Shown: positions 1,464 to 19,815 of the stretch, in pieces | Position numbering within the stretch: the first letter of the stretch is position 1 | Layout of the letters: each line of letters starts with the position of its first letter | Source: Armatimonadota bacterium | GTDB taxonomy: Bacteria > Vulcanimicrobiota > JACPDS01 > JBDRKI01 | Assembly (NCBI GenBank): GCA_043814095.1 | Contig: JBDRKI010000109.1 | Location: forward strand, 1 to 20,167 | Direction of reading: 5' to 3' | DNA: 20,167 nucleotides | The notes under the pieces: model-generated | Seen by the model: the letters and a program-made list of their open reading frames with translations, nothing else | Database searches by the model: none | What the model was told of the DNA's origin: nothing | Translations under genes and position numbers: made by a program

Positions 1464-1464
1464 T

Positions 1465-2463: not shown

Positions 2464-2472
2464 GAGGAACGC

Positions 2473-3234: not shown

Positions 3235-3286
3235 ACTCTTGATTATCGTTTTTTTAAACCGGTAGTTAATTTTTAAAGGAGTAAAT

Positions 3287-4402: not shown

Positions 4403-4504
4403 GCTTTATAAATAATAAAATAAAAAAGGTTCAAATCCTTTCAGTGTAGAAATTTAAGATTATAAAAGGATACAAAACGTTTGGCTTTTGAAAGGAGATT
4501 TTAT

Positions 4505-5017
4505 ATGAGAGCTTTAAAAGTCGTCTCTGTTATACTGGTGATTATATTTCTGTTTACAGCGGTCTGTTTTGCTAAGAACAAAATTAAAGATTATGATTTC
4601 GGTGTGGGTATAGGCATACCTTACGGCGGTATCGGAGCCAATGTTGAGGTCGGCAGGGATTATGTCTTTACGGCAGGTCTCGGTGTTATGCCTTTTACCG
4701 ACGCGTCAACCAAAAATACCCAGATCGGCTGGTCAACAGGCTTAAGATATTATTTTAAAAAAGAACTTGCCCCTGGATTAAAATGGAGAGTAAGCGCTCT
4801 TTACGGCACGGTAGCTTATATTGAAAGAAATTATGCAAATAATGTAACCGGCGGTACTGTAAAAGAATATGAATTATTAACCGGTTTTGCCCCGGCCGTG
4901 GGTATAAGAGGCGAGAACTGGGATTTTGATATCGCGTATCCTCTGGGATATACGGTTCCCGAGGGAGTTATGGAGAGAGGCGGGAAAATAAAGCTTTCTT
5001 TTGGATTCAGGTTCTAG
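4505..5017 (+). CDS. Small exported protein, probable outer-membrane beta-barrel
   Basis: ATG 4505 follows an AAAGGAG RBS. Signal-peptide-like N-terminus (MRALKVVSVILVIIFLFTAVCFA), Gly/aromatic alternating strands (GVGIGIPYGGIGANVE, WSTGLRYYF) and a C-terminal beta-signal-like KLSFGFRF ending in Phe. Confidence 0.65.
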   Translation: MRALKVVSVILVIIFLFTAVCFAKNKIKDYDFGVGIGIPYGGIGANVEVGRDYVFTAGLGVMPFTDASTKNTQIGWSTGLRYYFKKELAPGLKWRVSALYGTVAYIERNYANNVTGGTVKEYELLTGFAPAVGIRGENWDFDIAYPLGYTVPEGVMERGGKIKLSFGFRF

Positions 5018-5052
5018 AATATATAATATGATGCGTAAGTTTTCTATTTAAC

Positions 5053-5100
5053 AGGGTCAAGTTTATGAAGTTAAAAGCTGAATTTCATAAGCCTGACCCT
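5053..5100. repeat. Intergenic inverted repeat (20-bp arms, 8-nt loop); terminator- or REP-like hairpin
   Basis: AGGGTCAAGTTTATGAAGTT (5053-5072) pairs with AATTTCATAAGCCTGACCCT (5081-5100): 17 Watson-Crick pairs, 2 G-U pairs and 1 mismatch. Confidence 0.75.
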
Positions 5101-5132
5101 AAATTATTAAAATATACATAAAGAGGGTTCTT

Positions 5133-5705
5133 ATGTCTAAAGAATTAAAAGCGGATTTAGTTGAACTTTACAAGCAACTTTGTTTGGAAACAAGAGAGAA
5201 ATACAATAGAGTGCTTCCTTTCTCTGAAGCCGTTGTAGACAGGTGGGAGAAAGCAAAATTGCTCGGATTCGGACAGAATACCAGCATTTATGATTCAAGC
5301 ATTGTAATAGGCGACGTGAAAGTCGGTGAGAATACCTGGATAGGTCCTTTTACCCTGCTTGACGGTTCGGGCCTTCTGGAAATAGGTTCATGGTGCAGCA
5401 TTTCTACCGGGGTGCAGATTGTAACCCATGATTCGGTAAAGTGGGCGCTGACAGGGGGAGTTGCGGGATATGAAAAATCTCCGGTTAAAATAGGAGATCG
5501 CTGTTATATAGGTTCTAACTCTATTATACTGAAAGGTGTTGTTATAGGGGATAATGTGGTTGTGGGCGCGAGCAGTATGGTTAATGATGATATACCTCCT
5601 TATTCCATAGCTGTCGGGACGCCCGCGAAAGTTATAGGGAAAGTTGTGATAGATAATGATAAAGTCAGATTTGAATACTTTAAAAAAAGAGAAAACGAAA
5701 AATAA
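5133..5705 (+). CDS. Hexapeptide-repeat acyltransferase (putative sugar O-acetyltransferase)
   Basis: Motifs VKVGENTWIGP, EIGSWCSISTGVQIVTHDS, IGDRCYIGSNSIILKGVVIGDNVVVGASSMV and AVGTPAKVI. Confidence 0.9.
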   Translation: MSKELKADLVELYKQLCLETREKYNRVLPFSEAVVDRWEKAKLLGFGQNTSIYDSSIVIGDVKVGENTWIGPFTLLDGSGLLEIGSWCSISTGVQIVTHDSVKWALTGGVAGYEKSPVKIGDRCYIGSNSIILKGVVIGDNVVVGASSMVNDDIPPYSIAVGTPAKVIGKVVIDNDKVRFEYFKKRENEK

Positions 5706-6759
5706 TTTAAGGGTCTTGTTCGGCCCTATTCATATAGCCGGTAATTTTTTAGGATATTCTCAGGGGCTTTCCTCTCTCGGAGTATCATCTAAAATTGTTT
5801 TAACTAAGAAGCATTCTTTTGAGTATAACGATAAAAATACAGAGTATCTCGGCAATAAAATAGATTTAAACAAAGTAAATTTAAAATTTGATAAAGGCAG
5901 GATAAGAGGCAGTTTTAATTTATCAAATTATAAGTTTCTTAAGTTTATAGATAAGTTTGATATATTTCATTTTACTTTCGGTCATTCGCTCCTGTCAGAG
6001 AACAGGGATATCCCCATTTTAAAATCAAAAGGCAAAAAAATTGTTATGCAGTTCTGCGGATGCGATATAAGGTGCAGGGATATAGTAACCTCTGAGAATA
6101 GGAAAGCAAGTCCCTGCACTGACTGCAGGATAGAATGCATTACCGCACAAAAGAGAGATACGGTTAAATTCTGGGAGACTCACGCAGATGCGATTATAAG
6201 CCATCCGGAGTATTCACAACTTCTTACAAAGCCTTATCACTATTTTATAATAGGTATAGATCCGGATAAATGGGATGAAGGGAAACTTCAGGAAAATTCT
6301 GTACCTTTAATAGTGCATGCTCCAAGCATGCAGGATGTAAAAGGGACAAAATATATAGTTGAGGCTGTTAACAGTCTTAAAAACGAAGGGTATGATTTTG
6401 AGTTTAAACTCCTTGAGAATATGCCCAATGATGAGCTTAAAACAATCCTTCAAAAAGCAGATATAGTTGTTGACCAGCTTTTATGCGGGTGGTACGGCCA
6501 TCTGGCCGTGGAATGTATGGCGCTCGGCAAGCCTGTTCTTGCTTATGTTGATGAAAAATGGTGCCGGCAGGTAGGTTATGCGGTAGAAGTTCCTATTATA
6601 AACACGACAAAAGATAATATATATGAAAACTTAAAGAAACTGATTAAAAACCCCGGATTAAGGAAAGATTGCGGGAGAAAGTCAAGAGAATACGTAGAAA
6701 AGGTTCATGATTACAGAAAGGTTGCAAAAGAGCTTTTAAATATTTACAGCAGTATTTAA
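5656..6759 (+). CDS. Glycosyltransferase family 4 (GT-B fold); start uncertain
   Basis: Motifs LIVHAPS...VKGT, ADIVVDQL and YGHLAVECMALGKPV, plus the C-terminal SREYVEKVHD helix. The ATG at 5656 overlaps the upstream gene by 50 nt. Confidence 0.85.
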   Translation: MIKSDLNTLKKEKTKNNLRVLFGPIHIAGNFLGYSQGLSSLGVSSKIVLTKKHSFEYNDKNTEYLGNKIDLNKVNLKFDKGRIRGSFNLSNYKFLKFIDKFDIFHFTFGHSLLSENRDIPILKSKGKKIVMQFCGCDIRCRDIVTSENRKASPCTDCRIECITAQKRDTVKFWETHADAIISHPEYSQLLTKPYHYFIIGIDPDKWDEGKLQENSVPLIVHAPSMQDVKGTKYIVEAVNSLKNEGYDFEFKLLENMPNDELKTILQKADIVVDQLLCGWYGHLAVECMALGKPVLAYVDEKWCRQVGYAVEVPIINTTKDNIYENLKKLIKNPGLRKDCGRKSREYVEKVHDYRKVAKELLNIYSSI

Positions 6760-6774
6760 GGCGATTAAATTAAT

Positions 6775-8049
6775 ATGAAAATACTTCTTCTTGTTACAAA
6801 TGACATAATAAATGACTCGCGGGTGAAAAGAGTTGCTTCAAGCCTTGCTTCGTTTGGTGCCGATCTAACCGTATTCGCCAGAAGAAGCGAGTATGCTCCT
6901 GATGAAGAAACTTGTGGAGGATACAGGATACGGCGCGTTATAGGGCCTTATTATAAAAAGAAAAGGAAAAAGAGTAATCTGGATAAAGTACCTGTTTTAA
7001 GCTGGTTCTTTGAGGCAAGGAAAAAGATTGATAAATACAAGATAAATATATCAGGTTTTAAAATAAAATTTAAGAAAATAAATGATAATGATTATAACGG
7101 CATGTTTGAGATAAATAAAGAAGCGGAGAAAAAACATATAGAAGAAGTTCTGGAGAATAATAAAATATTTGTCATGGAAGCGTTAAAGGTAAAACCGGAT
7201 GTTGTTTACTGCAACGATCTTGATACATTGATAAGCGGGGTTGAGCTTAAAAATAAGACAGGATGCAGGGTTATTTATGATGCGCATGAGCTTTTCAGCG
7301 AACAGTTTACGAATAAATCTGACGAGTGGAAAGAATATTTTTTTGAACTTGAAAAGACCTTGATAGGTTTTGCAGACGGGGTTATAACCGTTAACGAATC
7401 TATAGGGAAAGAGCTTGTAAAAAGGTATAATATAAAAGATTATACCGTTGTTGCAAACTGTGCAAGGTATAAAAGCATAAATCTTAGGCCTTCCAAAAAA
7501 GAAAAAACCATACTTTACCACGGCAGGTTTGAGATTAACCGGGGTATTGAAGAACTTGTGGAAGCGATGAGGTATATAGAGGGCGCCAAACTTATATTAA
7601 GGGGGGACGGCTTTATAAAAGACAGGCTTGCTGATATAATTAAAGAACATAAGCTAGATAAAAAAGTTATATTTAAAAACATGCTGCCAGTGGATAAGGT
7701 TATAGAAGAGTCCGCAAAAGCCGATATAGGCGTTATAGCGTATGTGCCGAACTGTTTAAATAATTATTTCTGTACGCCGAACAAACTGTTTGAATATATA
7801 ATGGCAGGTTTAGCTGTATGCGGCAGTGATCTGCCGGAGCTTAATAATTACATAATAGGCGGGGGTATAGGAGAAGTTTTTGATCCGCGTAAACCCCGCA
7901 GTATCGCAGACAGCATAAATAAGATACTGGGTAATGAAAATATTTTGAAAAGATGCAGGGATAATGTCCGAGTTCTTGCGAAAGAGAAAATTAACTGGGA
8001 GATCCAGGAGAAAAAGCTAAAAGAAATTTTAATGCTTGGTGATATATGA
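6775..8049 (+). CDS. Glycosyltransferase family 4
   Basis: Motifs DSRVKR, PDVVYCNDLDTL, IYDAHEL, YHGRFEINRGIE and PNKLFEYIMAGLAV. Confidence 0.92.
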   Translation: MKILLLVTNDIINDSRVKRVASSLASFGADLTVFARRSEYAPDEETCGGYRIRRVIGPYYKKKRKKSNLDKVPVLSWFFEARKKIDKYKINISGFKIKFKKINDNDYNGMFEINKEAEKKHIEEVLENNKIFVMEALKVKPDVVYCNDLDTLISGVELKNKTGCRVIYDAHELFSEQFTNKSDEWKEYFFELEKTLIGFADGVITVNESIGKELVKRYNIKDYTVVANCARYKSINLRPSKKEKTILYHGRFEINRGIEELVEAMRYIEGAKLILRGDGFIKDRLADIIKEHKLDKKVIFKNMLPVDKVIEESAKADIGVIAYVPNCLNNYFCTPNKLFEYIMAGLAVCGSDLPELNNYIIGGGIGEVFDPRKPRSIADSINKILGNENILKRCRDNVRVLAKEKINWEIQEKKLKEILMLGDI

Positions 8050-8939
8050 AAATAAGCGTTATTATATGTACATATAACAGAGCCGACCTTATAAAAGGGG
8101 CGGTTGAAACCCTTATAAATCAGGATTTAAAAAAGTGTGATTACGAGATAATAGTCGCTGATGACGGCTCAACCGACAATACTTCCGAAGAGGTGTGCTC
8201 AATAAGGACAGACGCGAACCTAAGGTATTTTAAAAGGCCTCACCAGAGCAGGTCCGCGGCAAGGAATTACGGCATAAATCAGGCAAACGGGGATTACATA
8301 CTTTTTGTTGATGATGATATTTTAGCCCCGCCTGATCTTTTAAACCAGCATTTAAAATATCTTGAGAGAGGCGGGAAAATAGTCGTAAGGGGACCGGTTG
8401 TAAATACCCCTTATTATGACCTTGAAAAAAACAGCAAAGCGAATATCCAAGATTTTTCAATGGCATTTTTCTGCACCTGCAACGCTTCGGTGGACAGGCA
8501 GGTTCTGCTGGATATAGGCGGTTTTGACGAAAATTTCACCGAATACGGCTGGGAGGACACAGAGATCGGCCTCAGGATGCGCAACCGTGGCTATAAAGTA
8601 AAATTTAACATGGACGCGGTTATTTACCATTATAAACCTAAAAGCGCGGATGATCTTGGGGAATATATACAGAAAGCCGAAGAACTGGGCAGGACAGCGG
8701 TTGAATTTTATAAAAAACATCCCAGTTTAAGGGTAAGCATGGCTACGGGGATTAACCCTATACACAGGATCTGGCAGGGTGTCGCATCAAATTACTTTAT
8801 AAAGAATCTTGCCGTAAATCTTATAAAAAACGAAAAAATAGCAAGCAACAAAAACTTATCATATTTTTTAAAAAGCAGGATTTTTAATTATTATTATCAT
8901 AAAAGCATAGGTGATAAATTAAAAGGCAAAAAATCTTAG
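8046..8939 (+). CDS. Glycosyltransferase family 2
   Basis: Motifs ISVIICTYNR, ADDGSTD, ARNYGI, LFVDDD and GGFDENFTEYGWEDTE. ATGA overlap with the upstream gene. Confidence 0.93.
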   Translation: MKISVIICTYNRADLIKGAVETLINQDLKKCDYEIIVADDGSTDNTSEEVCSIRTDANLRYFKRPHQSRSAARNYGINQANGDYILFVDDDILAPPDLLNQHLKYLERGGKIVVRGPVVNTPYYDLEKNSKANIQDFSMAFFCTCNASVDRQVLLDIGGFDENFTEYGWEDTEIGLRMRNRGYKVKFNMDAVIYHYKPKSADDLGEYIQKAEELGRTAVEFYKKHPSLRVSMATGINPIHRIWQGVASNYFIKNLAVNLIKNEKIASNKNLSYFLKSRIFNYYYHKSIGDKLKGKKS

Positions 8940-8963
8940 AAAATAAAAAGCAAGGGTGAGATT

Positions 8964-9854
8964 ATGGATATTTCAATACAAATATGCTCGTATAACAGGA
9001 AGAATGTTCTTGAGAAATGTTTAAGAGCTCTGTGCAACTTAAATTATGACAGGGACAAGTTTGAACTTGTGCTTGTTGATGACGGATCGGTTGACGGGAC
9101 AGGGGAGCTTGTGAAAAATCTTAATATGCCTATAAAGCATAAATATATTTATCAGGAAAACCAGGGTCTGGCTACTGCCAGGAATAAGGGCATACGCGCC
9201 GCGGAAGGAAAATACATATTATTTATTGATGATGATATAATAGCGGATAAAGAACTTCTTAATGAGCATATAAAGTTCCATGAAAAATATATGAGAAGCG
9301 TGGTTAAAGGCTGGGTTAACCATGTAGATGACCTGGATAATATAACAAAGCCCAAATTTACCTGGGCGGATTTTTCAACCGCTTTTTTCTGGACTTCAAA
9401 TGTGTCGGTTGAACGCAAGTTTTTGCTCCAGTCCGGGCTTTTTGACGAGGAGTTCCGCGAATACGGCTGGGAGGATTTAGAGCTGGGCTTGAGGCTCCGC
9501 AAGCTGGGTTTAAGTTCAAGATTTAACAAAGATGCGGTAGTTTACCATTATAAAGGTATGTGGAATAAAGAGCGCCTTGAGAGAAGCATTAAGGTATCAC
9601 AGGCAAAAGGAAGAACAGCCGTTTTATTCTGCAAAAAACATCCGGGGGCCAGGGTGAAAATTGCTACCGGAAATTATTTTTTAAGAAAATTTTTAAATAC
9701 GGTATTATACTGTGCCGGCTCGGGCGAGAAGCTCTGTAATGGCCTTCTTGAGAAGAGAAATTCCGGAAAATATACATCGTTTGATATATTCCTTGCTAAA
9801 AGATTAATTGATTTTGAATATTTCAGGGCTATGTCAGGGGAAGAAAAAAAGTAG
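8964..9854 (+). CDS. Glycosyltransferase family 2 (paralog of 8046-8939)
   Basis: Motifs ISIQICSYNR, VDDGSVD, ARNKGI, LFIDDD, FFWTSNVSV and GLFDEEFREYGWEDLELG. Confidence 0.93.
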   Translation: MDISIQICSYNRKNVLEKCLRALCNLNYDRDKFELVLVDDGSVDGTGELVKNLNMPIKHKYIYQENQGLATARNKGIRAAEGKYILFIDDDIIADKELLNEHIKFHEKYMRSVVKGWVNHVDDLDNITKPKFTWADFSTAFFWTSNVSVERKFLLQSGLFDEEFREYGWEDLELGLRLRKLGLSSRFNKDAVVYHYKGMWNKERLERSIKVSQAKGRTAVLFCKKHPGARVKIATGNYFLRKFLNTVLYCAGSGEKLCNGLLEKRNSGKYTSFDIFLAKRLIDFEYFRAMSGEEKK

Positions 9855-9875
9855 AAAACAGAGAGTAAAGATATA

Positions 9876-10895
9876 ATGGAAAAGAAAGAACATAATTTTA
9901 AAAATATAGTCATAATTAACACAGGGGCTTTAGGAGATAATCTTTTATCAACTCCTTTAATTGAAGCGCTTTACACGCAGAACCCCGGTTGTTTTCTAAG
10001 CCTTGTAACATCAAGGCCCGGTTATGATGCATTAAAAACCAATCCCTGTATAAAAGACTTCTTTATAATTGACTATGATAAATCTTCATTTGCCGACAAA
10101 ATAAAGTTGGGTGCGGACCTAAAAGCTTTAAATCCGGAACTGGCCGTGAATTTAACCGAGAAAATATGGGGATATATATGGGCATTTTTATCAGGGGCTC
10201 CCGTAAGGGCCGGATTTATCCCCGGGATGAGCCAGCCCGTGAAATCTATGCTTGTATCCCCCTTGATTAACCGTAAGGTATACTTCCATAATGATTTGAA
10301 TGAAAAAAGTACGATGCACGAAGTGGAAAGGCATTTCCTAATTTTAAAAGCGCTGGGCATTGAAAAAGAGCCGGGAAAGTTAAAGATAAGCATTCTGGGA
10401 AACTTTAAACATGATTTTAAGGGCGCCTCTGTAGTGCATTTAACACGGAAATGGTTCAGCTCCGGCTGGGACGAGGAAGATTTTATTGACCTTATTAAAC
10501 ATGTTTCGCAGGTTCTTTCAAATACCCCTGTTATAGTATCATACGGGACCCTTGAAAAAGACTGGGCAGGTGATATTATAAAAAGGGTTGAATACATTAA
10601 CGGGGTAAAAGCTTACTATATAGGGGATATTATAGAGTTTGCCGGAATTCTAAAGGACGCAGGCGTAGTTATATCGCCTGATACGGGGATAATACACCTT
10701 GCGAGTGCTTCAGGCGCGCCTGTTGTGGATATTTTTGAGGAAAAATATTTTGAACACAATTCGAACCGCTGGTATCCCTGGAAAACAAAATATATTTTAA
10801 TTAAAAGAGAAGAAAAAAAAGAAGATAAAAATAAAGAAGAGTTTTTTGAAGATATTGTTGATTCAATGAGGGAGTTACAATGTTTATTAGTGTAG
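9876..10895 (+). CDS. Glycosyltransferase family 9 (ADP-heptose:LPS heptosyltransferase-like)
   Basis: Motifs GALGDNLLSTPLI, HEVER, ISPDTGIIHLASASGAPVV and RWYPW. Confidence 0.9.
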   Translation: MEKKEHNFKNIVIINTGALGDNLLSTPLIEALYTQNPGCFLSLVTSRPGYDALKTNPCIKDFFIIDYDKSSFADKIKLGADLKALNPELAVNLTEKIWGYIWAFLSGAPVRAGFIPGMSQPVKSMLVSPLINRKVYFHNDLNEKSTMHEVERHFLILKALGIEKEPGKLKISILGNFKHDFKGASVVHLTRKWFSSGWDEEDFIDLIKHVSQVLSNTPVIVSYGTLEKDWAGDIIKRVEYINGVKAYYIGDIIEFAGILKDAGVVISPDTGIIHLASASGAPVVDIFEEKYFEHNSNRWYPWKTKYILIKREEKKEDKNKEEFFEDIVDSMRELQCLLV

Positions 10896-12835
10896 TAGTG
10901 CCGACATATAACAGGGCGGATACATTAAAATATGTTCTGCCGTCGCTGGCCGGCCAGAGTTATCCGAACGATAAATATGAAATTATTTTATGCGACAGCG
11001 GTTCAACCGACGAAACCAAACAGCTGCTCAAAGAGCTGTCTATACCGAACTTAAGACATATTACTGTAGAGAACAGGGGTAGGGCATATGCAAGAAACGC
11101 CGGCATAAGTCATGCCCAAGGCGATATTATTTTATTCACTGATGCCGATATTATAGCGGACAAGAACCTTATTTATGAACACGCAAGGATGCATCAAAAG
11201 CACCCCGACCTGGCTGTCGTGGGGTGCGAGGTACAGGTAAACTCAATTGATGAAATTACCGGCATCATAAACGGGGTTAAGGAATTAAAGCCCATACATC
11301 CTTCACGAAAACGCCATCTTCCGTGGTATTTCTTTCTTACTGGCAACGCTTCGGTATCAAAAGAAAGCCTTCTTGTTGTAGGGCCTTTTGATGAAGATTT
11401 TAAAGGCTACGGCCATGAAGATCTGGAGCTCGGGTACCGTCTGTCCCGCATGAAGTATCATATAGTATATAATCCCAAAGCGGTAAATTATCATCTACAC
11501 CCGGTTTCTTTTGAAGAAAAGTGCGGAAAGATGTACCAGTCGGGGAAAGCAACGGTTAAATTCTATAATAAGCACCATGATTTTGATATTAAGCTGAAAC
11601 TGGGATATACGCCTGTTTCCACTATTATTCATTCTTTGATATCGCCTAAAGGCAAATTTTTTCAATACTGCAGGAAGAATAACGAGAAAAGCAGTCTGTG
11701 CAGGGAAATAATATTACAGCATTACTACATTACAGGCATAAAAGACGCTTTAAAAGGCCGGACAAAAGATATTGATACCATACAGGATAAAGGCGAGATA
11801 GAGAAAGAGAAAGTCAACAAGATACTTGTTATAAGGATAGATCATCTGGGTGATGTAATATGCTCGCTCCCGTTTATAAAATCTCTTCAGGATAACTTTT
11901 TCAACGCGCAGGTGGATGTGATTGTTTCATCAGGCACCCAGCAGGCTTTGTATAAAGCTTCTTTTATACATGAACTTATGGTATATAATCCCGGTTATTC
12001 CAAAAAAGAAGTGGCCGGTTTAGTAAACTTCCTTAAAAACAGAAAATACGATATAGCAATAGCCCTGTCGCCTACTTCGGCATCATATTACCTGGCATAT
12101 AAATCAAAAGCAAAAAGAAGGTTCGGCTGGGTATATATAAACAGGCCGGTAACTGCTTTCGCTACAAAATTCGCGCTTACCGATCCCCTTTATATGAATT
12201 ATGAAAAGCTTTTGAAAAAAGGTGAAAAAATACCCCATGAAGTTGAACAGACTCTGGATTTGGCGGAGAAGATGGGCGTAAAAATAAGTGATGACAAATT
12301 ATTTATTGATATATCGGAAGATGAAAGACTGCATAATATAAAACAGCTGGAGCTGCTTAAATACAGTAAATGCATAGGGCTTCACCTGTCACATAAATGG
12401 TTCAGCACCGATTTCTTAGACAGAGATTTTACAACCTTTGTGGAAAAACTGCTTGATCATTTCAGGGATTATACTTTAATAATAACCGCGGGCCCCGAAG
12501 AAGTTGATTATGTAGATATATTTAAAGACAGGATAAAAAGCGGCAGGATTCTGTTTTTAAAAGAACTTCCCTTTAAGGTCTGGGCTTCTGTTTTAAGCTA
12601 CTGCAGGTTTGTAATAACGATGGATACCGGCGCAACCCATGTGGCAGCCGCGGCCGGAGTGTCTGTAGCGTGTGTGTTTGAAGATGGGAAATACGATAAA
12701 TGCTCCCAGCAGTGGTATCCCTGGGGAGTTAAAAGCTTATTATATAAAAAAAGAGATATAAAGCAGTTAAAAGAAGAAGATTTTAAGAAAATGGAATATC
12801 TTACCAAAGACGAAGAAGTAGAAGCAAGAAGATAA
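10880..12835 (+). CDS. Bifunctional GT2-GT9 fusion glycosyltransferase
   Basis: The N-terminal half is GT2 (ISVVVPTYNR, CDSGSTD, LFTDAD, FFLTGNASV, YGHEDLELG). The C-terminal half is GT9 (ILVIRIDHLGDV, PHEVEQ, TMDTGATHVAAAAG, QWYPW). GAGGGAG RBS upstream. Confidence 0.92.
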   Translation: MFISVVVPTYNRADTLKYVLPSLAGQSYPNDKYEIILCDSGSTDETKQLLKELSIPNLRHITVENRGRAYARNAGISHAQGDIILFTDADIIADKNLIYEHARMHQKHPDLAVVGCEVQVNSIDEITGIINGVKELKPIHPSRKRHLPWYFFLTGNASVSKESLLVVGPFDEDFKGYGHEDLELGYRLSRMKYHIVYNPKAVNYHLHPVSFEEKCGKMYQSGKATVKFYNKHHDFDIKLKLGYTPVSTIIHSLISPKGKFFQYCRKNNEKSSLCREIILQHYYITGIKDALKGRTKDIDTIQDKGEIEKEKVNKILVIRIDHLGDVICSLPFIKSLQDNFFNAQVDVIVSSGTQQALYKASFIHELMVYNPGYSKKEVAGLVNFLKNRKYDIAIALSPTSASYYLAYKSKAKRRFGWVYINRPVTAFATKFALTDPLYMNYEKLLKKGEKIPHEVEQTLDLAEKMGVKISDDKLFIDISEDERLHNIKQLELLKYSKCIGLHLSHKWFSTDFLDRDFTTFVEKLLDHFRDYTLIITAGPEEVDYVDIFKDRIKSGRILFLKELPFKVWASVLSYCRFVITMDTGATHVAAAAGVSVACVFEDGKYDKCSQQWYPWGVKSLLYKKRDIKQLKEEDFKKMEYLTKDEEVEARR

Positions 12836-12837
12836 GA

Positions 12838-12864
12838 AAAGCCGCCTGGGTCTCAGGCGGCTTT
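12838..12864. terminator. Bidirectional rho-independent terminator between the convergent blocks
   Basis: AAAGCCGCCTG-GGTCT-CAGGCGGCTTT forms a perfect 11-bp stem with A-rich and T-rich flanks, immediately after the stop at 12835. Confidence 0.88.
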
Positions 12865-12907: not shown

Positions 12908-13996
12908 TTAGATTCCTTCCATCTGCGGGCCTTCTGTTGCGGCAAAAGTGGATGCCTGCGGCTGGAGCCTGCCGTATCCCGCGATTTTACTGGAGTGTAT
13001 TTCATTTGTGTTCTGCAGGGTAACTCCTCCGTGTGAGGGTGATGCGGCAAGCATTGTGTTTTTATCAACATAAATCGCTACATGCGTAACCCTTTTATAA
13101 GCTATGCCTGACTGATAAGAAGTATTTTTAAAGAATATTAAGTCGCCCGGTTTGGGATCTTTAACCAGGGTCATATTATTTTTGCCTTGTTCGGCGTGCA
13201 TATACTGTATGTCCGCTAATCTTGTGGAAGGGTCAGCTTTAAAGGAATTGCTGATGGCTTCCGAGCCTATGAGGGCTCTTCTTGTAAGCATTGCGCAGTC
13301 AGTCGTGTATTCTCCGTCTCCGCCGAGGTGGTAGGGTTTGCCCAGATCGCATAACGCGGTATAGAGTATTTTTCCGGATACCGTTTTCTCCGGATGGTAC
13401 TGGTCGCTTTTTACAGGGTCAAATTTCCAGAAAGTGCCGTCTTTTACTCCCGTTATAAGTTTGGAAGTCTGCAGATCAATCTGGTTTCCGCTGGGTTCAA
13501 TACCGTATATTGACTGGAATAAAGCAACCGCCTTGGCTGTTCTTTGGTTATATACGCCGTTCACCTGTATAAATCTTCTCATTTTAGGATGCCATTTAAT
13601 AAGCATCTTCTGGAGATCTTTTACCTCTTTGCCGGTTGATCCCAGCTTTAAATTATGAAATTGATTTGCTTTTTCCGAGTCAACTTTCTCTATTTTCTGC
13701 GTGCTTTCGGTGCTTTTTGATTCATCAAGAGGCTGTATTTTTATAACTTGAGGCTTAAAGTCTCCGGTTTGTTCATAAATCTTCTGCGCCTGCATGGCTA
13801 TATACTGGTCAAGTTTTTCAGTCTCGGTAAGCGGGGTAGGCATGTTCTGGGGGGTTGTTTTTTCAATATATTGCTGAAGCTGGTCCGAAAATGCAAGCAT
13901 ATCCGGTTTGGGCTCTGCCTGTTTTCTGAAAAACGGCTGGGCTTCATCCGGTATTTTATTCTGTTTTATTGGTGAAAAATCCATCGGATTTGTCAT
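12908..13996 (-). CDS. NlpC/P60 (C40) peptidoglycan endopeptidase with a PG-binding-like domain
   Basis: PG-binding-like segment LKLGSTGKEVKDLQKML...NGVYNQRTAKAVALFQSIYGI. C40 motifs LGKPYHLGG, TDCAMLT, PKPGDLIFF and THVAIY. No hydrophobic signal peptide. Confidence 0.88.
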   Translation of the reverse strand: MTNPMDFSPIKQNKIPDEAQPFFRKQAEPKPDMLAFSDQLQQYIEKTTPQNMPTPLTETEKLDQYIAMQAQKIYEQTGDFKPQVIKIQPLDESKSTESTQKIEKVDSEKANQFHNLKLGSTGKEVKDLQKMLIKWHPKMRRFIQVNGVYNQRTAKAVALFQSIYGIEPSGNQIDLQTSKLITGVKDGTFWKFDPVKSDQYHPEKTVSGKILYTALCDLGKPYHLGGDGEYTTDCAMLTRRALIGSEAISNSFKADPSTRLADIQYMHAEQGKNNMTLVKDPKPGDLIFFKNTSYQSGIAYKRVTHVAIYVDKNTMLAASPSHGGVTLQNTNEIHSSKIAGYGRLQPQASTFAATEGPQMEGI

Positions 13997-14115
13997 ATCA
14001 ATTCACCGCTTTCTGTTACGTAATGCGGATGGTGTTAGTTCCATCCAATTTAATTATAGGGTATTTATGCCTCTTTTAATATCCTCCATATGGAGTATTT
14101 TAAAAGCCCTTATTT

Positions 14116-15306
14116 TTAAGGATTTCTTCCTAAATATAGGTGCATATGGTCTCCGGTTTTGTTTTTACTGTCATAAATATATTCATTGTAGCATCCGAAC
14201 TGGCCGTAAAGCTTGTTCTCTTTTATGAAATTATTTATTAAATAAACAACTTTTTTGGACTCTTCACCTGATATATGTCCTTTTCTTGTATAAATCTGGC
14301 AGTCAATGGCATGTCCTATGCTGTGCTTTGAACCTTTATCATTGGACCTTAGACCGCTTGTCAGTATTACAGAGTATCCGTAAGTGTTAAGATAAGCCGC
14401 AAGGGAAGTAAAAATACCTGTAAGCTTTGTGCTTACCCCTATTAAAAGGTAAGTATTTCTTACAAAAGAACCCAGCCTGGAAGCCATCTGTCTTCTTCTT
14501 CTTTTATTTTTTATAAGGGCGTAAGTTTTTGATATGCCGTTTTTACACAGTAGAGCATAAGTTTCTTTCTTAAGAGAAGTGTTAAGCGGATATTTTTTTA
14601 AACTTGCTGTTCCGTTTAAAATGTCATTGAAAACAGCAAGATCTTTATTCGTTATTTCATTACCCTTGGAAGGAAGGCCGAATCTGTACTTAAAAAGCTG
14701 TAAAGCTGTGTATGTTTTTTGATCAAATATATCGCTTTTTTCATCTAATTTTTCATCACACGGCAGCCATTTATTAATGCTATTTTTTATAAATTTTGTA
14801 TATTTTGAAGAGTATCCGATATTATAAGTTTTACATATGGGAAATTTTTCTTTACCTTTTTTGGTATTTACTAAAAAAGTAATTCCTTCTTTAATAGTAT
14901 GGCCGTCTTTCAAATAGTCATATAAAAATTTACCTTCCGTATAATTTTCATATTTTTCAAGATCAGCTATTTTTGCGGGATTTGTAAAAAGTTCTTTAAC
15001 TTCAGGTGTTATTTCACCGGTAAAAGCAATATCATGACATCTTGCAAATATTTTTATCGTATTGAACATATTTGCGTCATAGATACCCGTTTTAAATATT
15101 TGTTCCGCAGGATTTTCTTTATAATAAGGCAGATTATCTGTCATCCATTTGGATAAAAACTTCTGAATAGCTGTTATCTGCTCTTTTGACAGGTTTTCTT
15201 TTATACTGCCGCACGGCAGTGTAACTATAGTTGCCCCGGTTTTAACAGAACTTATAACCCGGTTAGTTATTAAATTGTATGTTTCTCCTGATTGATTAAT
15301 AAACAT
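14116..15306 (-). CDS. M15-type Zn metallopeptidase (cell-wall peptidase) with two divergent PG-binding-like modules
   Basis: C-terminal ILTSGLRS, SKHSIGHAID (SxHxxGxAxD) and DHMH (HxH). The start is placed at ATG 15306: AGGAG lies 5 nt upstream, and the N-terminus MFIN matches the paralog's MYIN. Confidence 0.85.
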   Translation of the reverse strand: MFINQSGETYNLITNRVISSVKTGATIVTLPCGSIKENLSKEQITAIQKFLSKWMTDNLPYYKENPAEQIFKTGIYDANMFNTIKIFARCHDIAFTGEITPEVKELFTNPAKIADLEKYENYTEGKFLYDYLKDGHTIKEGITFLVNTKKGKEKFPICKTYNIGYSSKYTKFIKNSINKWLPCDEKLDEKSDIFDQKTYTALQLFKYRFGLPSKGNEITNKDLAVFNDILNGTASLKKYPLNTSLKKETYALLCKNGISKTYALIKNKRRRRQMASRLGSFVRNTYLLIGVSTKLTGIFTSLAAYLNTYGYSVILTSGLRSNDKGSKHSIGHAIDCQIYTRKGHISGEESKKVVYLINNFIKENKLYGQFGCYNEYIYDSKNKTGDHMHLYLGRNP

Positions 15307-15335
15307 ATACACTCCTGTATTCTCCCTCTATATAT

Positions 15336-15405
15336 ATTATAGTGTATGTTTATCCGATAAATATTAACAAAAAGTTAACAAAATGTTAACATTTTGTTAA
15401 CTTTT
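15336..15405 (-). promoter_or_regulatory. Promoter with TATAAT -10 and four 11-bp-phased (G/A)TTAAC boxes (OmpR-family/WalR-like)
   Basis: ATTATA at 15336-15341 reads TATAAT on the - strand. Hexamers lie at 15363, 15374, 15385 and 15396. 15370-15405 is a perfect 36-bp palindrome. The array is nearly duplicated at 18341-18385. Confidence 0.75.
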
Positions 15406-15470
15406 AATGGCAAAAAATAGCTCAAAGCAAGGTTTTTATTAATAAGCCGGTATATTTAAAGCTTTTATTC

Positions 15471-16913
15471 TTAAAGTTCTTTTGATTCCAGCAATTGTAT
15501 ATCTCCATCCGGCATTATTTTATATCTTTCAATTGTTTCTTTTTCAACGGTTATTTTGGTCTCAAGCTGACCTATTTTAGTGCCGTCTGGCCGGAACCAG
15601 TCTGTTTTAAGATATTTTTTAACATATTTTGCGTACTCAGTGCCGTTTGTAAAAGGCACCCTGTGGAAAGATGTGAATGTCCAGTAATCGCCTTTTTCCT
15701 GGTTTCCGTGATTGTCTGTCTGACCGGCAAAACTCATCCCTTTGATTTCTTCCGCAAATTGATGTTTGCTTTCAGGTATATTGTCTTCTATAGCCATGAC
15801 ATCTTTATAGTAAGGAGAAGTTGTATTTATCTTAACTCCATGCAGCACTTTTATATTAGGATCTGTTAAGGGCTCTTTCTCTATTTTTATTTCTTTGCTC
15901 TTTATTTCCGTTTTTTCTACAGGAGCTTTCTCCTCGCTTTTTTCCGGTTTCGCAATATTATTTTTAATCCATTTTATTGTTAATTTTAAAGGTCCGTCTT
16001 TACTTAATTTTTCAAGCAAACCGAATATCATATTTTTGTCTTCTATTTTTGCTTTATTGCCTATAGCAACCAATATTTCCGCGATACCTTTTCTGGCATT
16101 ATCGTTTCCCTGTATTTTTTCATTCCCAAGCAGGTTTAAAAGGTTGCCGAAGACACTTGTTCCTAATCCAGTTATTGTATTTATTGTGTCTTTACGCACT
16201 TCATCTGATTTATTCATCAAGAAGAAAATTTTATTAGCTGATTTAGTAAGAACATATAATTGAGGTCTTTTTTGAGTATTTGTTAAAAGCGATACAAGTT
16301 CTGCATCTTCAGCTTTTTTGGCTTCTTCAGCCTTCTTAGCTTCTTCAGCTTTCTTGGCATCTTCAGCTTTCTTGGCTTCTTCAGCTTTCTTAGCTTCTTC
16401 AGCTTTCTTAGCTTCTTCAGCTTTCTTAGCTTCTTCAGCTTTTTTGGCATCTTCAGCTTTCTTGGCATCTTCAGCTTTCTTGGCATCTTCAGCCTTCTTA
16501 GCTTCTTCAGCTTTCTTAGCTTCTTTTAATTTAGCTTTAGCGTCATCTATTTTATCCAGCTTTATTTCCCTTAATATTTTTATTCCAACTCTCAGTTTAC
16601 TTATTTCATCCGCGTTCTTATTAATTACTGCCGTTCTTTCATCAAAGGAAATATTCTTATTGTTCTGAGCTGTTTTTATAAGGACATATCTGTCATATAT
16701 TTCTTTTTGAAGCCTTAAGAAAAGTTTTTCTCCCGCTACTTTATTATTGTATCTGTCCAGGAAATTTAAAAGCAGAGTTTTGATGGAGTCTTCCTTTATT
16801 ATGGTGTTTACCATCAAACTGTTTATAAGGGTGTCTGCCGCGCTTTTAACCCTTTTGTTCTTAAACTCTTCATAAATAAAATTGCCGTATCCTACTCCCG
16901 GTAATTCTTTCAT
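15471..16913 (-). CDS. Hypothetical protein with central AE(E/D)AKK repeats; helical N-terminal and middle regions
   Basis: 480-aa ORF with a strong GAGGAGG RBS, starting 12 nt after the stop of 16926-18278 (probable operon). No recognisable catalytic motif or signal peptide. Confidence 0.8.
   Translation of the reverse strand: MKELPGVGYGNFIYEEFKNKRVKSAADTLINSLMVNTIIKEDSIKTLLLNFLDRYNNKVAGEKLFLRLQKEIYDRYVLIKTAQNNKNISFDERTAVINKNADEISKLRVGIKILREIKLDKIDDAKAKLKEAKKAEEAKKAEDAKKAEDAKKAEDAKKAEEAKKAEEAKKAEEAKKAEEAKKAEDAKKAEEAKKAEEAKKAEDAELVSLLTNTQKRPQLYVLTKSANKIFFLMNKSDEVRKDTINTITGLGTSVFGNLLNLLGNEKIQGNDNARKGIAEILVAIGNKAKIEDKNMIFGLLEKLSKDGPLKLTIKWIKNNIAKPEKSEEKAPVEKTEIKSKEIKIEKEPLTDPNIKVLHGVKINTTSPYYKDVMAIEDNIPESKHQFAEEIKGMSFAGQTDNHGNQEKGDYWTFTSFHRVPFTNGTEYAKYVKKYLKTDWFRPDGTKIGQLETKITVEKETIERYKIMPDGDIQLLESKEL
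16302..16523 (-). repeat. 18-bp coding tandem repeat, about 12 units encoding AE(E/D)AKK
   Basis: The + strand unit is approximately TTCAGCTTTCTTAGCTTC. It encodes 11 complete AE[ED]AKK hexapeptides plus partial units at each end (74 aa). Confidence 0.95.
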
Positions 16914-16925
16914 AATTGCCTCCTC

Positions 16926-18278
16926 TTATATATTTATATGGAAATGATCGCCGGTAGTTGATTTAAATTTTACGATATACTCATTGTAATATGTAAAACT
17001 TCTACCGGTCTGATTCCTGAACTGCTCAATTATCTGAGCTACAACTTTAGATTCCGCCTTTGCTATATATGCGCCGTTTTTACGCACTACAAAATCTATT
17101 GCTCTTCCCGTGCAGTGAGTGGAATCATAATCATACGGCCTTCTCCCGCTGGTTATTATAAGATCATAACCGTATTGATTTAAAACAGAGTATAATTCAG
17201 AAAACAGGTCAGCTGTTTCTTCTTTAATTTTAATTTTGGAACATATATCTGCCCGGGTTACTGTTCCGCGATACATACTGCAGCTGCAGGGTATCTGCCA
17301 GTTATATATATTGCCGTTATAGGTTGAAGTATATGCGGGGTATAATCTTCCCCTGCTCGCAAGCATTGCTCTTTTAAGCGAATATTTTTTTCTTCCCGGT
17401 ATCAGGCTTATTTTCTTATATGCTTTGGCGGGACCGTATTTACAGATTGTTTCATATACCAGTTTCTGCCACCTGTCTTCAAATTCATATTCGGGCTTCT
17501 TTTCAGGGTCTAGATTATCGCATAATATGTCGGTAAAAATTTCAAGATGCCGTTCAGTTATAACATTGGAATTGCAGTGCAGCCCGAATCTTTGATTGAA
17601 AAGTTCAAGAGCGGCTATTGTGGCTTTATCAAATTTATTTGTTTTATCAAGTTCCGCGCCTTTATGGGGCATTTTGCTCATCCAGTCTTTTAAGTAATGC
17701 TTTATTAAGTCAACATAATCCGATTCTTCGCCAAGTTTATATGTTTTGCAGATAGGATGCTTTGAGTTATTAAGATTGGAAATGAGGCTTAATCCCTCAT
17801 CTATTCCCTTGCTGCATACCGCTCTGTATAATATTGCGCCCTGGGCTGATTTTAATCTATAGGGGGAATCTTTTTTATCAAAACTACCCGCTGCTATTTT
17901 TTTAAATGCGGTTAGATGTTCTTCTGTGAGTCTTTCGCCGTCAAAGTTTATATCGTAGCAGGTTGAAAAAACATCCAGGAATTTTAAGGTATTATCGCCG
18001 TATTTAAAAGGGAGTCCGAACATCGCGTAGATTGAGGATGATTCTACCTCAGGGTCGGCAACAGATGCGCCGATTAAATTTTTATAATAGGGGGTTTTGC
18101 TTACCCATCTGTATAAAATTTTATGTATGGTGTAAATTTCTTTAGAATTGTAATTTTTAAGCCTTTTTGGCGACAGAGCGCTGGCTTCAGCAATTAAAGG
18201 ATATTTACTGAAGATCCCGTTTATTACCCGCTTTATTATTGAATTTTTTCCCGTTGCCGGGAACGAGTTAATATACAT
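16926..18278 (-). CDS. M15-type Zn metallopeptidase with two divergent PG-binding-like modules (paralog of 14116-15306)
   Basis: C-terminal IITSGRR, STHCTGRAID and DHFH. It shares PICKTY, LNxYGY, YNEYI and TGDHxH with the paralog. Confidence 0.85.
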   Translation of the reverse strand: MYINSFPATGKNSIIKRVINGIFSKYPLIAEASALSPKRLKNYNSKEIYTIHKILYRWVSKTPYYKNLIGASVADPEVESSSIYAMFGLPFKYGDNTLKFLDVFSTCYDINFDGERLTEEHLTAFKKIAAGSFDKKDSPYRLKSAQGAILYRAVCSKGIDEGLSLISNLNNSKHPICKTYKLGEESDYVDLIKHYLKDWMSKMPHKGAELDKTNKFDKATIAALELFNQRFGLHCNSNVITERHLEIFTDILCDNLDPEKKPEYEFEDRWQKLVYETICKYGPAKAYKKISLIPGRKKYSLKRAMLASRGRLYPAYTSTYNGNIYNWQIPCSCSMYRGTVTRADICSKIKIKEETADLFSELYSVLNQYGYDLIITSGRRPYDYDSTHCTGRAIDFVVRKNGAYIAKAESKVVAQIIEQFRNQTGRSFTYYNEYIVKFKSTTGDHFHINI

Positions 18279-18315
18279 CTTTACACCTTATAAGTATAGA
18301 TCTACTTATATTTAT

Positions 18316-18385
18316 ATTATAATATACAAAGGTTCGAAAGATATTAACAAAAAGTTAACAAGTTGTTAACTTTTTGTTAACTTTT
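18316..18385 (-). promoter_or_regulatory. Second copy of the TATAAT + 4x (G/A)TTAAC phased-box promoter
   Basis: ATTATA at 18316-18321 and hexamers at 18343, 18354, 18365 and 18376. The offset from the -10 to the first box is 27 nt, the same as in the 15336 copy. Confidence 0.75.
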
Positions 18386-18420
18386 ATTAAATATCTTATC
18401 AATGAACATCTTTTTATAAT

Positions 18421-19815
18421 TTACATAAAATCATTGTAAGCTTTAAGTACGTTCGCAACATAGTATTTAGTTTCAAGGGGGAGCTCCATTTTGTCGTATT
18501 TTTTGTGTTTTTTGAATTCCTGTTCCACTTCTGTAGGCCCCCTGTTGTATGCCGCAATGGCCAGCTTTAAGTTGCCGTTGAACCTGTCCAGCATTTTTCT
18601 TAAGTATTTTGAACCGCACATAATATTGGTTTCTATGTCAAAAATTTCACCGCTTTCATATTCTTCAAGATAACCGATGTCTTCTGCCGCTATTTTTGTT
18701 ACCTGCATAAAGCCGCAGGCATCCTGACCGGACACCTCTTTATGTCCGAAACTGGATTCTACGGATATTACGGCTATAATAAGGCCGGGAGGGAGGCTGT
18801 AAAGGGTACTTGCTTTTAAGACAGCCATGAAAAACTCATCAGTGTTAAACCCGTTTTCTCCGGCAGCTTTAAGAATCTGTTCTTTGAAGGGCTTTAATCT
18901 GGAAAACATATCGGCAAGAGTGAAAAACTTTTTTGTTTTCAACTGCAGTTTCTGTTTTGTCGCTTTTTTCTTCCCTGTGAATATAAGCATACCTTTATGC
19001 AGCCCGTGTTTTTCAAGCATTCTGTAAAGCCGGGATTTTTCATAAGAAAGATCTTTCCATGATTTTACAAAAGCGTTAATATGGGCTTTTGTAATGGTAT
19101 GGTTGTCGGAAGTTCTAATTTTCATTAATTTTGAGAATGCCTTTAATGCCATGAGCATATCGGAATCAAAAATATCATTTACTTTTATCTGCGCTTTATC
19201 TGGCAGCCATATATTTAATATGGTTTTTATGGCGGGTATTTCATCGTATTTATCGCCCTGTCGGTATTTTCTTGGAATATCCAGCGTTTCCAAATATCCT
19301 GTCAATCCCATGTCAACTGTTTTTATACCCTGTTCCATTAATATTTTGGGCGCTTTAATTGAAACAAAGATATGGTTTTTATTAGTCTTTTCAAAAGCTT
19401 TTAATCCTTTATGCAGGCCGTGTTTACAGATTAATTGATAAAGTTTTTTTCCGTCTGTTTTTTTATTCTTGTATTTCTTTTTTCGGAAGAAAGAAAGATC
19501 CTGTAAATCTTTAAGTGCTTGAATATGTTCTTGTGTGATTTCATCCATGGCAAACTGTTTTATATTATATATTATTGAAAACGCTTTTAACGCGGCTGAG
19601 GCATCGGCATCAAAATTCTGGTTTGCGGTAAGCTTTGAGCCCGGTGGCAGCCACTTATTCATCAGAATTTTTAAAGCCGTTATTGTTTCGGATTTTTCGC
19701 CGGTTTCAAACCGTAAGGGTTTTAAATTTTGCAGCATAACGCGCATTCTGTCCGGAAGAATAATCCGTCCGCCGGCCTGCCGGCTTTTTTGAATATTGAT
19801 TGATTCATTTTCCAT
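18421..19815 (-). CDS. Lytic transglycosylase (SLT family) with two tandem divergent PG-binding-like modules
   Basis: SLT motifs AVISVESSF (catalytic Glu), ACGFMQV, NIMCGSKYL, AIAAYNRGP and ETKYYVANV. Internal repeat WLP...FD.D...ALKAFS...IT..HI...LY....KHGLHKG. GGAG RBS. Confidence 0.9.
   Translation of the reverse strand: MENESINIQKSRQAGGRIILPDRMRVMLQNLKPLRFETGEKSETITALKILMNKWLPPGSKLTANQNFDADASAALKAFSIIYNIKQFAMDEITQEHIQALKDLQDLSFFRKKKYKNKKTDGKKLYQLICKHGLHKGLKAFEKTNKNHIFVSIKAPKILMEQGIKTVDMGLTGYLETLDIPRKYRQGDKYDEIPAIKTILNIWLPDKAQIKVNDIFDSDMLMALKAFSKLMKIRTSDNHTITKAHINAFVKSWKDLSYEKSRLYRMLEKHGLHKGMLIFTGKKKATKQKLQLKTKKFFTLADMFSRLKPFKEQILKAAGENGFNTDEFFMAVLKASTLYSLPPGLIIAVISVESSFGHKEVSGQDACGFMQVTKIAAEDIGYLEEYESGEIFDIETNIMCGSKYLRKMLDRFNGNLKLAIAAYNRGPTEVEQEFKKHKKYDKMELPLETKYYVANVLKAYNDFM

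Follow-up and report, generated by a model that had tools for sequence, protein, structure and literature searches.

An extended PG_binding_1 module shared by peptidoglycan hydrolases without Sec-type signals in an Armatimonadota genome, and its possible link to the flagellum

Introduction

The stretch of DNA analysed here, hereafter the window, is an entire contig of 20,167 bp (JBDRKI010000109.1) from an Armatimonadota bacterium (assembly GCA_043814095.1). Its minus strand carries four genes coding for putative peptidoglycan hydrolases: an NlpC/P60 endopeptidase, two LAS/M15-like metallopeptidases (M15a and M15b) and an SLT lytic transglycosylase. An earlier sequence-only reading of the locus noticed that these proteins share a module, present in seven copies and reminiscent of the PG_binding_1 domain, and took it for a lineage-specific targeting or export module that was duplicated and shuffled onto different enzymes. 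The locus raises the question of what this module is and by which route the enzymes that bear it reach the cell wall. We give somewhat better than even chances to the answer that it is the wall-binding and positioning domain of a family of Sec-independent peptidoglycan hydrolases, most likely sent out through the type III apparatus of the flagellum. Two of the elements on which this answer is built, the family-wide lack of signal peptides and the link to the flgJ position of flagellar operons, are points on which the earlier reading was silent.

Seven copies of the module

All seven copies were found on the minus strand where the sequence-only reading had placed them (Table 1). The segments, 103–135 residues long, are homologous; their alignment has invariant W, P, F, T and Y residues and each copy is recovered by profiles from which the protein that carries it was left out. 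In this recovery test the profile minus one protein's copies was searched against all 10,557 six-frame open reading frames (ORFs, at least 60 amino acids (aa)) of the source genome, which is 99% complete (G000), and the domain E values are those of Table 1. When M15a and M15b, which are 30% identical over their full length, were both left out, their four copies returned at E values of 1.2e-8, 2.4e-10, 3.2e-4 and 2.7e-10. The best unrelated ORF in the leave-one-protein-out searches had an E value of 0.025 and none beyond the module carriers passed 0.01. A search of the source genome with the full profile gave no eighth copy. The part of the module that lies beyond the PG_binding_1 core is conserved only moderately, less than the core itself: a leave-one-out profile of its 35 columns alone retrieved the SLT protein at E 8.8e-6, the NlpC protein at E 3.1e-6 and M15b at E 5.6e-4.

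The boundaries between the modules and the catalytic domains show two features. In the NlpC copy the trailing helix, GKILYTALCDLG, continues directly into G-K-P-Y-H-L-G-G, where the NlpC/P60 Pfam model starts (residue 219); because it runs straight into this start, the helix may at the same time be helix 1 of the catalytic domain. M15a (residues ~272–282) and M15b (~300–312) have a linker of the form basic-x-x-L-A-S-R-x-G between the last module and the catalytic domain, which may be a processing or recognition site; its A-S-R triplet, found just past the last module, is invariant in all nine two-module M15-type proteins aligned. A conserved disulphide between the 'CK.Y' at the module start and the 'LCK' of the trailing helix was considered and dropped, as the two cysteines do not co-occur across nine proteins.

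Table 1. Positions of the module copies, genes and promoter arrays in the window
Feature	Position	Strand	Size or residues	Remarks
Module copy 1, NlpC	13319..13654	-	residues 115-226	left-out recovery E 7.9e-12
Module copy 2, M15a-1	14857..15222	-	residues 31-152	enlarged helix 1-helix 2 loop; left-out E 8.3e-9
Module copy 3, M15a-2	14497..14832	-	residues 161-272	left-out E 3.6e-20
Module copy 4, M15b-1	17757..18161	-	residues 40-174	enlarged helix 1-helix 2 loop; left-out E 6.7e-13
Module copy 5, M15b-2	17382..17747	-	residues 178-299	modelled copy; left-out E 1.2e-19
Module copy 6, SLT-1	19375..19716	-	residues 34-147	left-out E 1.1e-14
Module copy 7, SLT-2	18964..19272	-	residues 182-284	shortest loop before trailing helix; left-out E 2e-9
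NlpC/P60 endopeptidase gene	12908..13996	-	362 aa	long N-terminal region, one module, catalytic domain last
LAS/M15-like metallopeptidase gene M15a	14116..15312	-	398 aa	two modules and catalytic domain
Repeat-protein gene between M15a and M15b	15471..16913	-	480 aa	function unknown, no module
LAS/M15-like metallopeptidase gene M15b	16926..18278	-	450 aa	two modules and catalytic domain
SLT lytic transglycosylase gene	18421..19815	-	464 aa	two modules and SLT domain
Four GTTAAC(A) boxes, 11 bp apart, then TATAAT	15364..15401			upstream of M15a
Four GTTAAC(A) boxes, 11 bp apart, then TATAAT	18344..18381			upstream of M15b

Fold of the module

PG_binding_1 is the only Pfam family with a supported match to the module. 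In a scan at E<=10 it matched two of the seven copies and spanned only residues 7–57 of 112. Its gathering score of 23 bits was reached by the NlpC copy alone (27.8–30.5 bits; residues 121–171 of the NlpC protein, E 2.9e-6), M15a-2 stayed below it with 20.1 bits, and the five remaining copies of the window gave no match at E<=10. At E<=0.1 the same model matched nine of 17 M15-type family members.

A first AlphaFold model, that of the NlpC copy made with a seven-row alignment, was good over its first 50 residues and had a predicted local distance difference test (pLDDT) score of 50–60 in the second half. The AlphaFold2 model of M15b-2, for which the alignment had 26 rows from the window, from the loci of relatives and from single-module proteins, has a pLDDT of 92.1 and a predicted template-modelling score (pTM) of 0.85. 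It is one compact domain of five helices (residues 10–24, 41–53, 65–75, 92–104 and 106–114). When it was compared by VIA with 48,161 solved chains, every one of the top 15 rows proved to have a wall-binding domain of the PG_binding_1 type. The best one, the SleB N-domain (6tci), superposes on model residues 1–76 with a root-mean-square deviation (rmsd) of 1.8 Å over 67 of 73 residues and a Z score of 7.4, helical models often attaining 6–7.4 by chance and a Z below 8 not being decisive alone; the fold is called because the top 15 rows agree and a Pfam match accompanies them. The other top-15 chains are from CtpB, SleC, the lysins of phages AP3 and phiKZ, 4xxt, 5tv7, L,D-transpeptidases, 1lbu, SltB3 and EpsAB. 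Foldseek puts the same PG_binding_1 proteins first (probability up to 1.0, E at least 0.25, 71–82 columns). The matched part is one contiguous domain in 11 of the top 15 rows, confined there to model residues 1–91, and helices 92–104 and 106–114 have no counterpart in these contiguous-domain matches among solved PG_binding_1 chains. Low-rmsd matches in a viral structure library extend over only 70–77 columns and are to the wall-binding domains of lysins. In the protein atlas the module retrieved PG_binding_1 clusters and one 261-aa NlpC/P60 cluster (TM score 0.65 over 108 residues).

The first ~75 of ~110 residues of the module are the ordinary PG_binding_1 three-helix fold. The likeness had previously been limited to the first half; it reaches further, since the 'IT......F' motif is the canonical third helix of PG_binding_1 and ~75 of ~110 residues consequently belong to the known fold. 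To this core the model adds a Trp-x-Pro after helix 1, a variable loop of 10–25 residues (often with G-[ST]-F-W in relatives) and two extra helices, the one of the 'LY..x.K.G' motif and a short one behind it, giving the pattern '..LY..x.K.G..K..'. Placing the Trp and the trailing helix outside PG_binding_1 was correct: the extension is covered by no Pfam model and by no solved PG_binding_1 structure found. The Trp column holds L 135 times, I 100 times and W 51 times across 479 domain hits.

Distribution and partner domains

When 1.84 billion representative proteins were searched with the profile, 688 matched at E<=1e-3, and most of the best 150 of them are long proteins with 4–11 ordinary PG_binding_1 repeats that match only profile positions ~3–70. 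These 150 representatives were fetched together with five proteins from a word-index homologue search, which found only close NlpC orthologues; 143 of the 155 match the 26-sequence profile. The extended form was recognised by a residue signature, namely the Trp together with an aromatic residue and a Gly in the trailing helix, which itself had to be covered, and is present on 24 of the 155 proteins. This signature replaced the criterion that the profile end be reached (48 proteins), which is wrong for tandem canonical repeats. The 24 extended carriers have LAS/M15-like (12), NlpC/P60 (nine, five of them close orthologues) or SLT (three, plus P0078 by eye) domains as partners. Shuffling onto different enzymes is therefore well founded, three catalytic domain types being associated with the module in the window and elsewhere, and no other type of partner was met. 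A scan of named genomes with the single NlpC protein found no relative, and a metagenome scan with one alignment gave mostly ordinary PG_binding_1 proteins without useful context.

Among 401 genomes sampled from the phylum, 14 have the module: the source genome, its only order-mate (G001) and 12 others of 5–9.5 Mb that belong to families f16, f18 and f19 and whose guanine plus cytosine (GC) content is 60–66% in the five loci measured. In these three families the module is single-copy and is carried by an NlpC/P60 protein (six loci) or by a LAS/M15-like domain. The idea of a lineage-specific module has to be given up, since single-copy versions are present in high-GC families that are distant within the phylum, and metagenomic proteins have them too. 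Note that the tallies on 401 genomes include 14 unpublished ones (G230, G247, G212, G370, G263, G344, G245, G275, G177, G328, G359, G391, G232 and G329), which count only in denominators and in the FlhA number given below; no module-positive genome or described locus is among them.

In the order-mate a two-module M15-type gene (contig C165, 5204–6563) is split into two ORFs of 169 and 257 aa. Its second module starts upstream of the start codon of the second ORF, the split being due to an error of assembly, a stop or a frameshift. A gene for a small SLT protein with a signal peptide adjoins it on the opposite strand.

Export signals

The N-termini were assessed by the highest 12-residue hydropathy within the N-terminal ~50 residues, a crude stand-in for a signal-peptide predictor. 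This maximum is 0.21–1.39 in the four window hydrolases (0.21 in the NlpC protein) and remains below 1.6 in all 24 extended carriers, whereas 57 of 119 ordinary PG_binding_1 proteins reach 2.0 or more. The extended-module carriers thus appear to have no Sec-type N-terminus, in clear contrast to ordinary PG_binding_1 proteins. The window ORFs cannot extend upstream because each begins at the first start codon after a stop. The modules are preceded by an N-terminal region of 30–115 residues; as read from the sequences, the carrier N-termini are unstructured and rich in Ser, Thr and Asn. Markers of other signal-independent exporters (VipB of type VI secretion systems, VirB4 of type IV secretion systems and a phage-type sheath) were not found in the 99%-complete source genome.

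Flagellar gene context

The NlpC/P60 gene with a single module lies directly after flgF-flgG-flgA-flgH-flgI in four genomes (G067, G061, G053 on contig C101, and G059), so that flgI adjacency is found in four of the six NlpC-type loci and spans two families. In G061 it starts 9 bases past the flgI stop codon and in G059 it is followed by a flagellin gene. In the classical operon the gene found after flgI is flgJ. A stand-alone Rod-binding FlgJ of ~100 residues, without hydrolase domain, is encoded in all five relatives tested. The source genome likewise codes for FlgJ by a separate 104-aa ORF (contig C55; PF10135, E 1.1e-14), which is its sole Rod-binding match; none of the five window proteins matches PF10135 at E<=1. 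A complex prediction of the NlpC protein with this stand-alone FlgJ scored 0.00 against a mark of 0.32, which is evidence neither way. In the source genome the short flgJ directly follows flgG, while the high-GC relatives have flgA-flgH-flgI there, and no match to FlgI (P-ring) was found in its 99%-complete sequence.

The flagellar export cluster of the source genome is complete (FliH, FliI, FliJ, a small SLT protein, FliK, a hook-type protein, FliM, FliN, FliO, FliP, FliR, FlhB and FlhA). The small SLT protein encoded between fliJ and fliK (contig C54, 16513–17091, minus strand; 192 aa) shows no hydrophobic stretch at its N-terminus when inspected by eye; the flagellar operon thus seems to code for at least one signal-less wall hydrolase as well. 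That would be unusual, given the Sec signals of SltF and BB0259. In addition to full-length FlhA, the source genome has two ORFs whose match to the FHIPEP/FlhA model is restricted to its C-terminal, cytoplasmic half (C4:6322–7311 and C67:7470–8351, in frames of 468 and 430 aa).

No description of an NlpC/P60-type enzyme at the flgJ position, or of the extended module, was found in the literature on FlgJ and flagellar hydrolases. Nambu et al. (2006) reportedly treated the domain plasticity of FlgJ and may describe peptidase-type variants of it.

Catalytic domains

Two of the enzyme types are assigned by Pfam models well above their cut-offs. The NlpC/P60 domain (NLPC_P60, E 1.1e-13, 51.5 bits with a cut-off of 23, residues 219–334) has its catalytic Cys in a T-D-C-A-M motif that is invariant in six of six orthologues. 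The SLT domain (PF01464, E 1.7e-23, 82.8 bits with a cut-off of 21.3, residues 332–443) has V-E-S-S, in which the catalytic E-S motif can be read; the best NCBIfam model for this protein is that of the flagellar-assembly transglycosylase BB0259 type, at E 1e-18 and far below its cut-off.

The M15 label holds only at the level of motifs. The Pfam M15 models remain below threshold in all 17 family members scanned, only three of which match at E<=0.1; in the window M15b matches M15_3 (E 0.014, 16 bits, cut-off 23.2) and M15a matches M15_4 (E 0.058, 14.4 bits, cut-off 25). In 17 family members H388, G391, D395 and H447 (numbered as in M15b) do not vary and form H-x6-D and H-x-H motifs, which fit H-x(3–6)-D and H-x-H, the motifs that we take to be those of the zinc and catalytic site of Peptidase M15/LAS enzymes. 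A profile comparison with solved structures aligned the H..GrA.D site with the zinc site of the hedgehog N-domain, only at E 0.75. The two proteins are probably best named LAS/M15-like.

GTTAACA-box promoters

M15a and M15b are each preceded by an array of GTTAAC(A) boxes (Table 1). The window has nine matches to this box for 0.72 expected, a number reached in none of 100 shuffles. Arrays of at least three boxes with exact 11-bp spacing, followed by TATAAT, occur at about 40 places in the source genome, one of which precedes the hook-type gene of the flagellar cluster (C54:14583–15404). Of the downstream genes with an assigned family, three code for caspase-like proteins; the products of others include an M90/lethal-factor-like peptidase, an HtrA-like protease and SLBB, HD and PAD-like proteins. 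The arrays look like one large response-regulator-type regulon and, as far as sequence tells, M15a and M15b would belong to this large set of mostly unknown and degradative proteins.

Other genes of the window

A sugar-nucleotide and glycosyltransferase cluster occupies bases 1–12,835 on the plus strand. It is separated from the five minus-strand genes by a strong two-way terminator hairpin (12,838–12,864). Its UDP-glucose/GDP-mannose dehydrogenase gene (45–1463, plus strand) contains an intein (Pfam Intein_splicing, E 5.6e-12, residues 181–312) placed between the central and the C-terminal dehydrogenase domains. The gene at 10880–12835 (plus strand) codes for a 651-aa fusion of a family-2 glycosyltransferase and a family-9 (heptosyltransferase-type) one, and a separate family-9 gene lies directly before it. 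The 480-aa protein encoded between M15a and M15b has ~13 tandem AKKAE(E/D) hexapeptides, (AKKAE[ED])n, at residues ~125–205 and no signal peptide; no informative family or fold match was found for it in Pfam or in the protein atlas, its C-terminal region included.

Discussion

The simplest family member is a single module on an NlpC/P60 endopeptidase. Because some relatives whose FlgJ is a rod-cap domain only encode this protein after flgI, flagellar export is the most likely of the routes: passage of the carriers over the inner membrane would not involve Sec and would most plausibly use the type III apparatus of the flagellum, by means of their N-termini. Once in the periplasm, the catalytic domain would be kept on the glycan mesh of the sacculus by the module. 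In the lineage of the window, tandem duplication would have provided more binding sites and higher avidity, and recombination of the module with LAS/M15-like and SLT domains would have led to a four-gene set that cuts both glycan strands and peptide stems. Wall binding, flagellar export, the avidity effect and any role of the four window enzymes in flagellum assembly are what we infer in this scheme. What the data show is that the copies are homologous, which fold the core has, that the modelled extension is compact, which domains accompany the module, that Sec-type N-termini are absent and how the gene neighbourhoods are composed. Of the two functions initially proposed for the module, targeting is favoured because the core of the domain is a wall-binding fold; a role of the module itself in export found no support. 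Its origin may lie in an NlpC/P60 protein, from which it would have been copied with the first helix of the catalytic domain, later part of the module, because the trailing helix meets G-x-P-Y-x-x-G-G there and G-[FY]-P-[FY] still follows it in M15-type proteins with a single module.

Several observations weigh against this scheme. Wall binding is only 'putative' even for the parent Pfam family PG_binding_1, the Z scores of the structural matches are of the size discussed above, and the leave-one-out profile of the extension alone missed M15a (E>10). Two of the six NlpC-type loci (G097 and G083) have the gene beside a SelR gene, with no flagellar neighbours, and none of the three M15-type loci in relatives (G057, G053 on contig C93, and G001) is flagellar. 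The four hydrolase genes of the window lie beside the sugar/glycosyltransferase cluster and not beside flagellar genes, and the flagellar cluster of the source genome already has its own SLT protein. M15a and M15b are each served by a separate promoter that has a GTTAACA-box array; 19 of the 28 genes scanned downstream of such arrays have no Pfam family and most of those checked are not flagellar. FlhA is found in 380 of the 401 genomes of the phylum sample, a near universality that prevents the joint presence or absence of module and flagellum from testing the link.

A different role for the two extra helices would be docking or export: they would bind to a partner, for instance the FlgJ cap, rod proteins, an export chaperone or the export gate, and the module would be the adaptor that brings hydrolases to one machine. 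We hold this to be unlikely. Export signals of type III systems are N-terminal, whereas the modules come after the 30–115-residue N-terminal region, and the extension is modelled as packed on the wall-binding core rather than as a free peptide. The confinement of the extended form to signal-less proteins (24 of 24), the association of the module with three unrelated catalytic domains and the two additional FlhA proteins reduced to the C-terminal domain speak for docking, as do separate flagellar hydrolases that, in a passage of PMC8517470, are reported or proposed to act with single-domain FlgJ. A wider form of the same thought has the flagellar type III apparatus delivering an entire wall-cutting toolkit, made up of zinc peptidases, a lytic transglycosylase and a cysteine endopeptidase. 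Its members would all be marked by a five-helix, PG_binding_1-derived adaptor whose two extra helices dock at the growing rod or at the FlgJ cap, and in the lineage of the window the toolkit would have expanded and come under the GTTAACA-box regulon. Such a toolkit is equally improbable in our estimation; the sharing of the regulon with caspase-like and other proteases would then suggest that it serves for more than building flagella, for example to remodel the envelope or to attack other cells.

The four genes could also be weapons or lysis genes, either antibacterial or predatory effectors or domesticated phage lysins, with the module as their wall-binding domain. Phages typically have modular lysins that lack a signal and begin with a PG_binding_1 domain, those of AP3 and phiKZ appear in the list of structural matches, the NlpC and SLT catalytic domains are matched by PHROG families of tail lysins and endolysins, and the operators of M15a and M15b are of the type found at genes for caspase-like proteases and other degradative enzymes. 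Nonetheless the 20-kb contig has no phage structural, holin or integrase gene, a tblastn search with M15b against 50,697 phage records gave nothing at E<=1e-3, and no viral predicted structure matches at low rmsd past the 70–77-residue core. The enzymes are not paired with small immunity-like genes, the secretion and contractile-sheath markers listed above were not found in the source genome, and NlpC-type relatives are located in flagellar operons. There is in our view little chance that these genes serve as weapons or for lysis.

Least probable is that the modules are a removable pro-region, the catalytic domain being inactive until cleavage at the basic-x-x-L-A-S-R-x-G linker as with the PG_binding_1-like pro-domains of matrix metalloproteinases (MMPs) and in the SleC zymogen: the invariance of A-S-R, the match of the linker pattern to 12 of the 24 extended-family proteins (NlpC- and SLT-type ones included), the zymogenic SleC and pro-MMP chains among the structural matches and the many proteases of the GTTAACA-box regulon would fit it, but the motif is missing from the SLT and NlpC proteins of the window, the trailing helix of the single-module NlpC type joins the catalytic domain without a linker, and there is no conserved residue resembling a cysteine switch, the Cys positions not co-varying.

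It is still debated how large machines, the flagellum among them, pass through the cell wall. To our knowledge, the known helper enzymes are glycosidases, equipped with a Sec signal or else with a rod-cap domain. A 2026 paper (PMC13584718) reports that Salmonella can dispense with the activity of FlgJ itself. The present family would bring in an endopeptidase of the cysteine type in the place of flgJ, a recognisable wall-binding adaptor that has moved among three enzyme classes and is common to them, and a set of periplasm-acting hydrolases without classical export signal. The extended module is a clean sequence marker for such enzymes in metagenomes, and its two-helix add-on poses the question of whether it changes the wall part or the partner that a PG_binding_1 domain recognises. 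The specialist interest lies in a signal-less family with a member in flagellar operons, should its route of export be confirmed; taken by itself, the elaboration of the domain is of modest interest, and a lineage-restricted elaboration of a common domain is what would be left if the flagellar link fails.

Comparison with known systems

The module shares its three-helix core with PG_binding_1 domains (PF01471; SleB N-domain 6tci, the Streptomyces albus Zn DD-peptidase 1lbu and phiKZ gp144 3bkh). The common pattern is G..G..V..LQ..L ... (D/N)G.(F/Y) ..T..A(L/V)..F ... G..(I/L)(T/D)..T...L. Both are placed on the N-terminal side of enzymes that hydrolyse peptidoglycan, that of 1lbu being of the LAS/M15 kind. 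Unlike PG_binding_1, the module has a Trp-x-Pro after helix 1, in a column that is L or I in 235 of 479 hits, and two further helices on the core, and its carriers have no signal peptides. Phage endolysins (phiKZ gp144, Burkholderia phage AP3 lysin 5nm7) are likewise signal-less, carry a wall-binding domain before the catalytic domain and have a core structurally matched to that of the module. The proteins described here differ from them in having no phage context, no match in phage records and extra helices that are unmatched in the viral structure library; PHROG matches are confined to the catalytic domains or to the canonical wall-binding core and never include the extension.

In four of the six NlpC-type loci of relatives, though not in the window, the NlpC/P60 gene occupies the position of flgJ, which in Salmonella codes for a dual-domain protein (rod cap and GH73 glucosaminidase). 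Like FlgJ, its product has no Sec signal, which is what one would expect if the flagellar system exports it. Export of FlgJ by this system is established knowledge and is also stated in part of PMC8517470. The NlpC/P60 protein departs from dual-domain FlgJ in that it has neither a Rod-binding nor a GH73 domain, the rod cap is encoded by a separate gene, and the enzyme is of the cysteine endopeptidase type and not a glycosidase. A single-domain FlgJ with a separately encoded hydrolase is also the arrangement of SltF (Rhodobacter/Cereibacter) and BB0259 (Borrelia). These two use Sec signals, and BB0259 requires its own, as far as the relevant passages of PMC8517470 go. The proteins of the present family are signal-less, in contrast, and have the extended PG_binding_1 module in place of the unrelated N-terminal region of BB0259. 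Taken together, the hydrolases would resemble machine-associated enzymes of the FlgJ and SltF type, yet they appear to fail two of the features that define these, the Rod-binding domain of the former and the Sec signal of the latter.

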